Assembly (NCBI RefSeq): GCF_054482595.1
Contig: NZ_CM137008.1
Reading direction: 5' to 3' (one strand)
DNA length: 64,000 nt
Part shown: positions 54,201 through 60,200 of the stretch, in pieces
Position numbering within the stretch: the first letter of the stretch is position 1
Layout: each line of letters begins with the position of its first letter
Program-made: the position numbers

Positions 54201-57200
54201 CGGTGATCCAGTTCCCGCCAGCACAAGAAAGGGCAATGTAGGGACTATCAGGATCGAGGATCTGGCTGCATCCCCAACGAACGAATTCATCCACATAACG
54301 TGTGTAGTTGGTAAACAAGACGAACGGCTGAAAATGTTCAACTGGCGTACCGGTATAATGGCGCAACCGTGCGAGGGAAAAATCGACGCGGCGCGCATCA
54401 AAATGCGATAGGGGGGAGAATTCAGTTGGATGATAAATGCCGTCTGCAGTTTCATCGCCAATTTGCGCCAGTTCTGTTGTCGGGAAGTAGCGAGTTAACC
54501 CAGCGCTCATTGAGCGATCAAGTGTCAATTCAGAGCCATCGATGACATAAGGATAAGGGATTTCATGCTGCGAGGGTTGCACAGAGATATGCGCACCATA
54601 ATCCTGATACAGCAACGTAAGTTGTTCATTAAGATACGAACGAAAGAGAGTAGGGCGAGTAATCGTGGTGGTGTAGCTGCCTGCGTGAGTAAAACGACCA
54701 AATGCGCGCGTTTTGGGGGGATTGGTTGTGCTACCGTCCCAGGTTACGGTCAGTGATGGATAGACAAAAAGACCTTGTTTGCGGGCGTTTTCATCAGGTA
54801 ATTCGCCACTTGTAATATAGTTGCCAATGGCGTTGCGTAATGCGACTACAGATTGCTCATACAGCGCGTCGAGTTTATCCAGTGCCTGAGCTGGGGTCAG
54901 ACCGGAGCCCTTATTATTCATGTGTGTCTCCTGTTCCATACAATTACCGCACATCCGATAGTATGTCACAGGAATGTGAAACAAAAGTGTAAGGCGAAGA
55001 TCGGATGATCTTCGCCAGACTATCAAGCGCGTTGATTGTCTTTCATCAACAAAGCGGTCATTGCGGAAATCAGACATCCAGCCAGCAAATAAATGGCGAC
55101 GCTATGCCAGTTCCCGGCAAAGTAAGTGATGAGTGCAGCGGCAATAAAAGGTGTAAATCCACCGCCAACCACACTGGCGACCTGATAACCGACTCCAGCA
55201 CCACTATAGCGATAACTGGCACCAAACATTTCGGTAAACATCGGTTGTTGCACACACACCACCATGTCATGCGCAATGTTTGCCAGCATTATGGAGAAGA
55301 AAACTATCCAGAAAATAGATTGTGCTTCAAGCGCCATAAAGAAAGGAAATGCGCTCAACGTTCCGATTAACGCACCTGTGATATAAACCCTGCGGCGACC
55401 AAAACGATCGGCAAGCCAGGCAAAACAGGGAATTGTCAAGCAGCTTAATCCACCTACCAGCAAACCAATATTGAGGAAAAGTTCGCGCGGTAACCCCATA
55501 TTCTGGGTTGAATAATTAAGTGCAAAGGCAGTAACGATGTACATCGTCAGCAATTCGCACAGTCGTAGCGCAATAATCTTCAGGAAAGCACCGGGATGTC
55601 GTAACAGCGCTTCGATAACCGGGATGCGTTTTTTCGCGGCAGCTTGATAATGTTGCTGTTGTTCAAATTCCGCGGACTCCTCCATGCCATTGCGCACCCA
55701 CAATGCTCCCAGTACCAGTACGATGCTAAACAGGAAAGGAATGCGCCAGCCCCAGCTTAAAAACTGTTCGTCAGTCGTCATCATACTGATCAATGAAACC
55801 AGTCCGGTTGAAAGCAGTAAACCTACACCGTAGCCAACTTGTACACCGCTACTGTAAAAGGCTTTTTTATTTTTCGGTGCACTTTCAACGGAAAGCAACG
55901 CCGCGCCTCCCCATTCGCCGCCGACGGCAAATCCCTGAATGGCACGCAGTGTCACCAGCAAAATAGGTGCCCACCACCCAATGGTCGAGAATGAAGGAAG
56001 AATACCAATCAAGGCTGTCGCGATGCCCATCATCCAGACGGTCAGCATTAACATGCGCTTACGTCCCAGTCGGTCGCCAAAGTGACCGAAAATGACACCG
56101 CCGAGCGGACGGAAAAGGAATCCGACGCCAAAGGTGGCAAATGCGGCGAGCGTTCCCATCGCCGGGCTTACTTGCGGGAAAAACTCGCGATTAAACACCA
56201 GTGCGGCGGTGATGCCATAGAGTAAAAAATCATACCAGTCGACGACGGCACCAGCGAAGCTGCCTAACGCAGCTCGTCGGGCGCGACTTAACGAAAGCGT
56301 CCCTTCATCGGGACGAGTGGAGATGAGCGTGGAGTCCATAATGATCCTGTTTGTACTGTCTTTTTATAATTAGTATGGAAAAGGTAACTCACATTGCCGT
56401 CGATCTATAAACGAACCTTATGAGACTACCTCGACAGAGCGCATCTGCAAATGATTTTATGGCTGATTAGCGGCAACATGAAAAATTCGATGGAAGATGA
56501 AAGCGCAGGAGTTGCTGGTGTTGTTTAAGGATTAAGCAGAGGAGCCACAGGTTAGAGATATGAAACATAAAAGTCCGCATATGCACAAAATGGCACCCTG
56601 ATGAGTCTGATAGACTGCATTGCATTATAACCAGTAGGGAGGCGAGGTTAGGTATGTTTTTAGCATCATTGTTGAGACGTATTGCATTTAGTTACTACGA
56701 TTATAAAGCTTATAATTTCAATATTAAAAAAACAGACTTTGTTGTCATCCATATTCCCGACCAGATTGGCGATGCTATGGCCATCTTTCCTGTTATTCGG
56801 GCGCTTGAATTGCATAAAATTAAGCATCTTTTAATTGTTACGTCGACAATTAATTTAGAAGTGTTTAATGCACTTAAACTTGAAAAGACTAAATTAACAT
56901 TAGTCACAATGACTATGCAGGATCACGCAACATTAAAAGAAATAAAAGATTTAGCAAAGAACATAACACAGAAATACGGTACGCCGGATCTTTGTATAGA
57001 GGCGATGCGTAAAAAGAACCTGAAAACGATGATATTTATCAGTCAGTTGAAAGCAAAAACGAATTTTCAGGTTGTTGGTTTAACCATGAAGTGCTACTCC
57101 CCTTTGTGCAAGAACGCGTCCCGGATGGATCAGAATCTCCGGGCTCCTGTACCCATGACATGGGCATTTATGATGCGTGAGGCGGGTTTTCCAGCAGTCA

Positions 57201-60200
57201 GGCCAATATATGAATTGCCACTAAGTGAGGATGTACTCGATGAGGTGCGCGAGGAAATGCGATCGTTAGGATCTTACATTGCGCTTAATTTAGAAGGTAG
57301 CTCGCAGGAACGTACATTTTCACTATCGATTGCAGAAAATCTAATAGCAAAAATTCAAAGTGAAACAGATATACCAATAGTGATCGCTCATGGACCAAAA
57401 GGGGAAGATAAAGCCAGGGTATTAGTGGATTGTTATAATAATGTCTACCGTTTATCCTTATCACCCTCGATTAAACGTTCAGCAGCAATCATAAAAGATG
57501 CTTATATCGCAATAACTCATGACACTTCAATATTACATATGGCAAGTGCCTATAATACCCCCGTTGTTGCAATTTATGCTGATTACAAAACGCGATGGCC
57601 CGCAATGGCCGATGTTTCGGAGTCAGTCGTCGTTGGGCAAAAAATTGACAATATAAGTCTGGATGAATTCGCAAAGGCATTAAAAAGTGTTTTGGCGAGA
57701 ATATGAGACAGTACTTATGCATAGTAATGCCGATCTGTTATGAACGGTGGTGTCATCAATACTCTGAGGCTGGTCAATCATCACAGAAAACCAGCCTTTG
57801 GATCAAAGCTGTACTCACCGGATACGATCATAGTCACATCGAACGCGATTCTTGCGGTGCAGCAGTTTTATTTATTCATTTTCTGTGAGAGAAGGGCAAG
57901 CTCTATAGAGGGAATGTAAAAAAGAGTGCTCCGAATGGAGCACTCTTTAAGAAATTATAACGGAAAATCACAGGTTTTTATAACATGTCGCATAAGCAAA
58001 CCCGGTAATGACTCCAACTTATTGATAGTGTTTTATGTTCAGATAATGCCCGATGACTTTGTCATGCAGCTCCACCGATTTTGAGAACGACAGCGACTTC
58101 CGTCCCAGCCGTGCCAGGTGCTGCCTCAGATTCAGGTTATGCCGCTCAATTCGCTGCGTATATCGCTTGCTGATTACGTGCAGCTTTCCCTTCAGGCGGG
58201 ATTCATACAGCGGCCAGCCATCCGTCATCCATATCACCACGTCAAAGGGTGACAGCAGGCTCATAAGACGCCCCAGCGTCGCCATAGTGCGTTCACCGAA
58301 TACGTGCGCAACAACCGTCTTCCGGAGCCTGTCATACGCGTAAAACAGCCAGCGCTGGCGCGATTTAGCCCCGACGTATCCCCACTGTTCGTCCATTTCC
58401 GCGCAGACGATGACGTCACTGCCCGGCTGTATGCGCGAGGTTACCGACTGCGGCCTGAGTTTTTTAAGTGACGTAAAATCGTGTTGAGGCCAACGCCCAT
58501 AATGCGGGCTGTTGCCCGGCATCCAACGCCATTCATGGCCATATCAATGATTTTCTGGTGCGTACCGGGTTGAGAAGCGGTGTAAGTGAACTGCAGTTGC
58601 CATGTTTTACGGCAGTGAGAGCAGAGATAGCGCTGATGTCCGGCAGTGCTTTTGCCGTTACGCACCACCCCGTCAGTAGCTGAACAGGAGGGACAGCTGA
58701 TAGAAACAGAAGCCACTGGAGCACCTCAAAAACACCATCATACACTAAATCAGTAAGTTGGCAGCATCACCAGCAAACCCAAGCTTTTCAAATACGCTTT
58801 GATCACCTGTTGCCAGGGAAACTACGTATTGTTCGCTTGAGTTTGCGGGACTAGATGACCAATACATATTTGATCGAAAACCAGCTTCAGTCGTGTAATG
58901 CCCCATATCTCCCCATTCACTGTACAGTGACCCGATGCCTCGGGAACGACTATGGTTTAAATGGTCTGCACGGGGAAGTGTGTAGCCATTGCTACTGCAA
59001 AAATTTTCAGCAAGGCTGTATATCATGAAAGCATCGCCGGAGTTCACCCACCAACTCTTCACACGGATTTCGTATACATAGCTAGGGCCTCCTGATTTTG
59101 GCGTCGCCGTAATCCTTTCCCAATTGCTGCCGACATTTTTAAATGTCACTTTACCGATAGCATCAACATCGACCCAGGAGGCAGAGCTTGAAAACTCATA
59201 ATCAGCCGCCGTTTTTCCTGGGGCAAAGTTGTCATTATTCAACTGATAATACGCCCCGGTGAACCCCTGCGAAGGGAATGTAGTTGTCGGTAGGTCAGTA
59301 CCATTGACTGATACTGTACCGCTCATTATTTTGTCTTCTGCGCGAGTGAATTGTATTGTGGTACTCAGACCAGCTTGATGAACACCATTCAATACAGGGA
59401 TCAGCGTTGCGATACCCTCTCCGCCGCCTGTAATGGTGGCTTTATAATCACCGTTGATATTTTGACTGTAATCAATTGCGCTAATTTTCATATAGGGCAC
59501 GTTAGTACCTGATTGCACAAATTCCATCCCTTCAGAAACTTTGATCGGATTGCCTGATATATCGTGCAAAACAAGATGTAGCTCAGCACTATCGGTAAAG
59601 TCCCCTTTCAGTGAGGACCGATTGTTCTTAAGGACGGACTGCGAGGCGTCTGCCGGGCCTGCCACCAGCGTTATATCTACTGTTTGCATTCCACCAGCGG
59701 TCGTGACTGCGCTTACCGTGACGCTACCTGTCATCGCTCCTTTCACGCTTGTTGTCGCGATTCCGTTTTGATCGGTCACCGCTGTTAATGACGTTAATGT
59801 GGCAGAGCCGCTTTTTAAGGCGAAGTACACAGTGAGACCTTCGATCAGGTTACCACTGCCATCCTCAACCGTTGCCTTTAAGGTACTTAAATCACTGTTG
59901 GTGGCGGCGATAGTCGATGGATCAGCGATAAAGCTAGCAACATGTGCGGTGCTTGAGTTGCCAGTGACTTTCACGGTTGTCTGTGTCTGTATTGTTACGC
60001 CGTTATGGAACGATGCAGTCACCGTATATGTACCGACTTTATTGCTGGTCAGAACGACCGGAGCCTGACCTGAAGAGTTAGTTCTCACTTTTCCGCCACT
60101 TAACGTCGCCCCTTCTGGCGTTACGCTAAAGTTGATGACCTGACCCTCCACTGGAGTGCCATTTGCAGAGGTTAGCGTTGCCGTCAGAGTAGTGCCTGTA

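Follow-up and report, generated by a model that had tools for sequence, protein, structure and literature searches.

The yeeL locus

We examined the Escherichia coli gene yeeL in a 64,000-nucleotide (nt) stretch of contig NZ_CM137008.1 (RefSeq assembly GCF_054482595.1), hereafter the window, whose numbering is used for all positions given below; counts of complete genomes refer to a set of 5,426 complete E. coli genomes. The local gene order is amn (minus strand), shiA (minus), yeeL (plus), an IS1 element and yeeJ (minus), and yeeL, which is chromosomal and monocistronic, is sited between shiA and yeeJ. Its coding sequence (CDS) occupies 56654-57706 on the plus strand and specifies 350 amino acids (aa), from an ATG start to a stop codon. 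There is hardly any doubt that this is an intact allele of yeeL, an ordinary gene of glycosyltransferase family GT9 (GT-B fold) that stands as an orphan.

The original prediction had described an uninterrupted 350-aa GT9 open reading frame (ORF) with a plausible start, and it held in each respect. The 350 codons are free of internal stops, for which we estimate a chance probability of ~1e-10 from the base composition (~40% GC). A Shine-Dalgarno motif, GAGG, can be read from the sequence at 56644-56647 (plus strand), 6 nt before the ATG, and both ends of the frame coincide with a RefSeq CDS assigned by the Prokaryotic Genome Annotation Pipeline (PGAP) as 'glycosyltransferase family 9 protein' in the near-identical strains EC6622 and GPEC1366. 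The protein also matches the GT9 profile PF01075. Membership of the YeeL orthologous group is indicated by the conserved amn-shiA-yeeL order and by 96-99% identity to E. coli orthologues, among them the RefSeq GT9 proteins WP_000477884.1, WP_000477878.1 and WP_000480513.1, which have the same length and start. The exact protein of the window is present in NCBI as WP_458928498.1, on one contig only. Intact yeeL is annotated in thousands of genomes and the pseudogene status of the K-12 copy is likewise on record, so that neither observation is new in itself.

On the upstream side yeeL is divergent from shiA, the shikimate transporter gene (55023-56339, minus strand), which marks the syntenic position. 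The intergenic region between the two (56340-56653, 314 nt) differs by 0-1 positions between strains. The base composition of yeeL, at ~40% GC, departs from that of its flanks (~50%). Further upstream, the mechanically called amn ORF (53467-55077) is 52 codons too long, the annotated gene ending at 54921 by RefSeq alignment; the apparent overlap of amn with the 3' end of shiA is an artefact of choosing the first possible start codon.

YeeL as a member of family GT9

The GT9 profile search that had been proposed as a check passed its threshold, PF01075 scoring 28.4 bits against a gathering score of 22 with a match confined to residues 233-321; YeeL relatives P0121-P0144 score 35-52 bits against the same profile. 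An AlphaFold2 model built from the family alignment (mean predicted local distance difference test score, pLDDT, 84.5; predicted template modelling score, pTM, 0.83) has a conventional N-lobe and presents YeeL as a GT-B fold of two Rossmann-like lobes, for which a structure-based search returned WaaF and WaaC as the nearest solved structures. Sequence searches of the PDB, with the single protein and with the family profile, gave only marginal matches at the donor motif (E 0.05-0.4).

Residues associated with GT9 activity could be placed by alignment. Codons G39-D40 (56768-56773, plus strand) form the GT9 'GD' motif, whose D40 lines up with D13, the catalytic base of WaaC; both residues of the motif are invariant in a 22-sequence alignment. 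Codon R220 (57311-57313, plus strand) aligns by hhalign with the donor-phosphate-binding K192 of WaaC, with Arg in place of Lys, and is invariant in the YeeL family. At codons H289-D290 (57518-57523, plus strand), D290 corresponds to WaaC D261 within the D-T-S-x-x-H donor motif, and D290, T291 and H295 together align with the D(T/S)xxxH motif that begins at WaaC D261. When the K-12 paralogues WaaC, WaaF, WaaU and WaaQ are aligned with YeeL, the invariant positions are G39, D40, D290, H295, A299 and P303. The GT9 residues for catalysis and donor binding are therefore retained.

YeeL shares with these four GT9 enzymes (PDB 2h1f and 1psw) the Asp of the GD motif, a basic donor-phosphate residue, the D(T/S)xxxH motif and a size of ~320-357 aa. 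It is, however, only 12-16% identical to them, and its gene is an orphan that lies outside the waa cluster. The protein also carries an N-terminal extension of ~28 aa with an invariant D16-Y17; WaaC and WaaF have no such extension, whereas a long one is seen in WaaU in the alignment. The closest K-12 paralogue by hhalign is WaaU (heptosyltransferase IV; 80% probability). YeeL differs further from all four in a conserved, family-specific loop at residues 141-163 (window ~57074-57142). This loop is nearly invariant across Enterobacterales (C147, C152, S156, D159, Q160 and R163) and is the sole low-confidence part of the AlphaFold2 model (pLDDT ~42); C152 is not conserved in the out-group. The loop may be an acceptor-binding or induced-fit element.

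Full-length orthologues (349-370 aa, 52-71% identity) are found in E. albertii, Pseudocitrobacter, Erwinia, Rosenbergiella and a divergent Escherichia lineage, and a 20-sequence alignment of the family contains ~100 invariant columns. The ratio of nonsynonymous to synonymous substitution rates (dN/dS) is ~0.10 for yeeL both against the 71%-identical Escherichia lineage and against Pseudocitrobacter.

Natural alleles of yeeL

The original prediction took the K-12 copy to be a pseudogene, and the record agrees. In NC_000913.3, yeeL/b4497 is annotated as a pseudogene at 2052276-2053328 (minus strand), and PGAP flags an 'internal stop' in the K-12 derivative TG1. The K-12 gene lies at the same locus between shiA and yeeJ, spans the identical 1053 nt in the same frame, and is preceded by an intergenic region that differs from that of the window at 1/314 nt. 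Alignment of the two genes shows a single lesion, Q235* (CAA>TAA), and 31 other substitutions (32 nt differences in all, 97.0% identity), which amount to 15 aa differences besides codon 235 (57356-57358, plus strand; CAA, Gln, in the window). The stop deletes most of the donor-binding C-terminal lobe. The K-12 gene is therefore equal in length and broken, and the window gene keeps the GT9 catalytic residues, as the original prediction required.

The further suggestion that yeeL is a gene lost in the laboratory strain did not survive comparison with other genomes. The yeeL locus was found in 5,343 complete genomes (~98%), and 765 (~14%) contain an exact copy of a 57-mer that has the K-12 TAA at its centre, among them isolates from goose, egret, chicken, giant panda, river water, bovine mastitis, pig and human patients. 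The human-gut isolate EC09, with a 4.86-Mb genome, has the identical codon-235 stop. Because the K-12 stop allele is carried by so many genomes, wild, water and clinical isolates among them, the codon-235 stop is a natural lineage polymorphism older than domestication and not a laboratory loss. The corresponding 57-mer of the window, with CAA, was matched exactly by 1,184 genomes; most of the others depart from it by 1-2 bases, and yeeL is intact in most of the E. coli records sampled. In strain engineering, the K-12 pseudogene has served for integration at a neutral site (PMC11566304, PMC12492688).

Other interruptions of the gene were encountered as well. Insertion sequence (IS) elements break the yeeL match in genome hits H1 and H28, and three large clusters of 'partial' YeeL from Shigella sonnei (P0042, P0047 and P0089; 297, 258 and 200 aa) contain hundreds to thousands of members, which suggests, as far as these protein records go, that yeeL is disrupted in the S. 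sonnei lineage.

The window allele has substitutions of its own. YeeL of the window keeps every column reported as invariant. It does not, however, keep all family-conserved residues: position 289 is His where Pro stands in each of the 19 other family members and 13 out-group sequences aligned (down to ~25% identity), and V245 is replaced by Ala; both ancestral residues, P289 and V245, are kept in K-12 yeeL. An exact H289 57-mer was found in 56 genomes from pig, bird, human and environmental sources, and the residue at 289 is V or N in WaaC, WaaF, WaaU and WaaQ, so that on alignment evidence the GT9 fold tolerates variation at this position.

A local rise in divergence within yeeL is explained by an intragenic recombination junction in the interval 57175-57323. 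Nucleotides 1-522 of the gene follow the type of EC6622 and GPEC1366, and nucleotides 523-1053 are identical to the type of KSC9 and IBS28 (WP_000480513.1), which already has A245 and H289; the latter type continues downstream through the yeeJ 3' end. Downstream of the junction, differences from the KSC9/IBS28 type number 0/531 in yeeL, 0/297 in the intergenic region and 1/1200 in yeeJ, and all 17 differences from KSC9 fall within the first 522 nt of the gene (probability ~7e-6 under uniform placement). The yeeL of the window is a natural recombinant, a mosaic of two allele types. We had considered that four private changes (E25K, Q107K, V245A and P289H), taken with the locally raised divergence, might signify decay in the window strain, and rejected this: 56 genomes carry the natural allele type to which H289 and A245 belong, GPEC1366 likewise has K107, and the only unique change is E25K, at a variable position.

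The adhesin YeeJ and the acceptor of YeeL

Downstream of yeeL lies the inverse-autotransporter adhesin gene yeeJ (58745-64000, minus strand), which runs off the window. It is interrupted by a 768-bp IS1 (58004-58771, minus strand) flanked by a 9-bp target duplication, AGCAAACCC, at 57995-58003 and 58772-58780. The yeeJ frame now ends inside IS1 (...GFAGDAANLLI*), and its orphaned 3' end, the last 11 codons and stop (GFAYATCYKNL*, with GFA in the target-site duplication), remains at 57968-58003 (minus strand), severed by the element. The C-terminus YATCYKNL of YeeJ is thus swapped for GDAANLLI, with loss of the terminal Cys of the C-type-lectin-like tip. Between yeeL and yeeJ stands a 12-bp GC-rich hairpin (57921-57948; -25.4 kcal/mol, z -5.4) with a T-run after it on the minus strand and an A-run on the other side. 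The hairpin is predicted from these features to be the yeeJ terminator, and probably also stops yeeL transcription, which would make it bidirectional; IS1 parts yeeJ from it. The junction of yeeL with IS1 in one piece was present in none of the complete E. coli genomes searched.

The passenger region of yeeJ contains, at 62262-63779, three diverged tandem units of 609 nt (100%, 80% and 63% identity over a 300-nt core), each encoding two immunoglobulin-like domains; the units emerged from a direct-repeat search, Tandem Repeats Finder (period limit 500) having given none in yeeJ. The 3' end of the gene matches strains with a yeeJ of ~7.98 kb, the long UMN026-type length, of which the window holds only part.

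The proximity of the two genes had led to the proposal that YeeL may be related to the adjacent adhesin. It could be the dedicated glycosyltransferase of YeeJ, modifying the passenger before export in the manner of Aah with AIDA-I and TibC with TibA. The two genes adjoin in many E. coli, and GT9-like heptosyltransferases encoded beside the autotransporters they modify provide a precedent (PMC4358343, PMC3835316). With these bacterial autotransporter heptosyltransferases (BAHTs; TibC and Aah, PDB 4rap) YeeL shares a GT-B-like catalytic core with an Asp base, a probable ADP-heptose-type donor and a gene near an autotransporter-class adhesin. The genetic arrangement, however, is different: aah-aidA and tibC-tibA are operons (PMC3835316), whereas yeeL and yeeJ are convergent with a terminator hairpin between them, and their presence and intactness are decoupled. 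The yeeL gene is in ~98% of genomes and intact yeeJ in 35-40% (PMC5595812, PMC6714894); yeeJ lies beside tRNA-asnT, an insertion hotspot, was horizontally acquired, and only 1/38 yeeJ-positive genomes belongs to phylogroup B2 (PMC5595812, PMC6714894). Intact yeeL stands beside a degraded yeeJ in at least seven strains, and K-12 is the reverse, with yeeJ intact and yeeL broken; the K-12 YeeJ reaches the cell surface and favours biofilm formation in MG1655 (PMC5595812), a strain in which yeeL is broken.

Outside E. coli the adjacency is not conserved, no adhesin lying within 10 kb of the orthologues in Pseudocitrobacter (amn-shiA-yeeL-mtfA, without yeeJ), Erwinia, Rosenbergiella or the 71%-identical Escherichia lineage (hchA-yeeL-mtfA-shiA-amn). 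The hallmarks of a BAHT are likewise absent from the sequence and model of YeeL. The iron finger of TibC is made of four Cys (C339, C342, C358 and C370; PMC4358343), and YeeL has Cys only at 114, 147, 152 and 260; nor does its model contain the N-terminal beta-barrel, the atypical four-stranded N-lobe or the beta-hairpin thumb of these enzymes (PMC4358343). A TibC sequence match was sought in the PDB at E<=10 and none was found. The adhesins differ in kind too, YeeJ being a type Ve (inverse) adhesin and the BAHT partners type Va with a beta-helix. A glycosyltransferase dedicated to YeeJ is therefore very improbable, and in the window the adhesin is itself disrupted by IS1; almost certainly, YeeL does not act on its neighbour.

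An acceptor of lipopolysaccharide (LPS) type is the best supported, because the genomic contexts of the out-group, the ranking of folds and the affinity to WaaU together point to it. An exhaustive profile search with YeeL recovered 34 cluster representatives beyond the core family at E<1e-30, the nearest out-group at E 1e-81 to 1e-33, and all out-group members whose contigs were informative map to loci for LPS core or surface polysaccharide, none with an adhesin. The neighbours of P0121 (Carnimonas bestiolae) include a GT4, a kinase-like gene, a second GT9, two GT2, two Wzy_C, WecG and Bac_transf; those of P0125 are Wzy_C, Bac_transf, WecG, a GT4 and a flippase; P0128 and P0130 directly adjoin GT8 genes of RfaI/J type; and P0150 is one polypeptide in which an O-antigen-ligase (Wzy_C) domain is fused to a YeeL-like GT9 domain. 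In the mechanism we propose, YeeL would take a nucleotide-activated sugar, for which ADP-heptose would be the donor by family precedent, and would move it onto an LPS-core-type glycolipid at the cytoplasmic face of the inner membrane, a modification that would be accessory and possibly conditional or non-stoichiometric. We give about even chances to an LPS-type glycolipid being the acceptor. A fuller proposition is put forward only tentatively: nearly all E. coli, though not K-12, would have in YeeL an active accessory glycosyltransferase of the envelope, adding a sugar, probably heptose, to the LPS core or another surface glycoconjugate under particular conditions.

Several observations weigh against the LPS-type mechanism. 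In Enterobacterales yeeL stands alone, away from the waa cluster, and has no functional neighbour that is conserved, and waa-cluster genes suffice to explain the defined E. coli cores (R1-R4 and K-12) with, to our knowledge, no missing GT9 step. YeeL falls below the cut-offs of the NCBIfam heptosyltransferase equivalogs (TIGR02193, 38.7 vs 185.3; TIGR02195, 20.2 vs 134.6; TIGR02201, 17.7 vs 170.2) and by these is not WaaC, WaaF or WaaQ (RfaC, RfaF or RfaQ), although it may work in like manner, and a fold cannot of itself specify either donor or acceptor. Constraint within E. coli is weaker than on shiA (dN/dS 0.12-0.37 vs 0.01-0.09), and the gene has been inactivated repeatedly, by the stop allele in 14% of genomes and by IS elements in H1 and H28. 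A promoter scan of the 314-nt region 5' of yeeL gave no match exceeding shuffled expectation, and so AT-rich a gene may be silenced. The P289H substitution, next to the predicted donor-binding Asp, is a caveat on function, since intact is not the same as functional. The literature available to the search contained no functional study of yeeL. The one phenotype-level result found is a hint in favour of the proposed role: transposon-directed insertion-site sequencing (TraDIS) of the ST131 strain EC958 showed Tn5 insertions in yeeL (EC958_2299) to be enriched in a hyper-motile pool, with a log fold change of 7.46 (PMC5425062), although the hit was not individually validated. In EC958 (NZ_HG941718.1, 2211895-2215915) the intact yeeL has a frameshifted remnant of yeeJ as its neighbour, immediately following the yersiniabactin island (fyuA).

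Some of the same facts would suit a gene that is intact but dispensable or inert here: a silenced, slowly decaying accessory gene whose frame is open from lack of time and whose activity is possibly impaired by P289H. The recurrent natural inactivation (765 stop-allele genomes, IS elements in H1 and H28, many partial clusters in S. sonnei), the within-species dN/dS above that of shiA, the AT-richness with no promoter match above chance, and His289 in place of the Pro of 19 other family members and 13 out-group sequences are all compatible with such decay. It is nevertheless unlikely, given retention of the gene in ~98% of genomes and an intact frame in most sampled records, the long-term dN/dS of ~0.10 across genera, the persistence of the H289 allele in porcine, avian, human and environmental isolates (56 genomes), and the V or N found at 289 in the Waa enzymes; the TraDIS enrichment in EC958 (PMC5425062) also implies that disruption of yeeL has a consequence there.

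Two other kinds of acceptor were weighed. YeeL might work in trans as an O-heptosyltransferase of other surface proteins, such as Ag43 (which has no dedicated glycosyltransferase), flagellin or other autotransporters. Sherlock et al. (2006) reportedly found Ag43 to be glycosylated in a wild-type strain. In enterotoxigenic E. coli, outer-membrane proteins and FliC are extensively O-glycosylated, far less so in MG1655, which is without YeeL (PMC5000012), and the hypermotility hit (PMC5425062) would be compatible with an altered surface protein. Against this stand the BAHT-specific modules missing from YeeL and the uniform location of informative out-group genes in LPS or polysaccharide loci, and we regard a protein acceptor as improbable. 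We attach equally little weight to a non-LPS acceptor such as enterobacterial common antigen, a capsule linker, osmoregulated glucans or a small molecule moved by a neighbouring transporter. A major facilitator superfamily (MFS) transporter gene does directly adjoin yeeL in E. coli, Pseudocitrobacter, Erwinia and Rosenbergiella, but we know of no GT9 member that acts on small molecules, and the out-group context again points to LPS and O-antigen loci. A conserved link of yeeL with such a transporter (shiA, or the upstream MFS gene of Erwinia and Rosenbergiella) was itself rejected: the linkage is coincidental because the three transporters (YdeE-like, NepI-like and ShiA) are unrelated, with no significant pairwise similarity, and because no MFS gene is adjacent in the 71% Escherichia lineage. 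HipA_C-type toxin kinase genes were also seen within a few kb of yeeL-like genes in two settings unrelated to each other, Rosenbergiella (L005, 12895-14199) and a metagenomic contig (L020, 3510-4856); this proximity is probably a coincidence.

For work on this locus, the K-12 yeeL lesion, shared by ~14% of sequenced E. coli, should not serve as an example of laboratory gene loss, and experiments on YeeJ need not consider YeeL. YeeL itself is a conserved, uncharacterised fifth GT9 enzyme of E. coli with relatives in LPS loci, and as such a modest target for experiment. If the tentative reading of YeeL as an accessory envelope glycosyltransferase is true, strains that lose it would change in surface behaviour, motility for instance, which is what the unvalidated TraDIS hit in EC958 suggests, and a widespread surface modification would have been overlooked since the model strain is a natural null. 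Should YeeL modify LPS or another surface glycan, envelope biochemistry based on K-12 would be blind to that modification.

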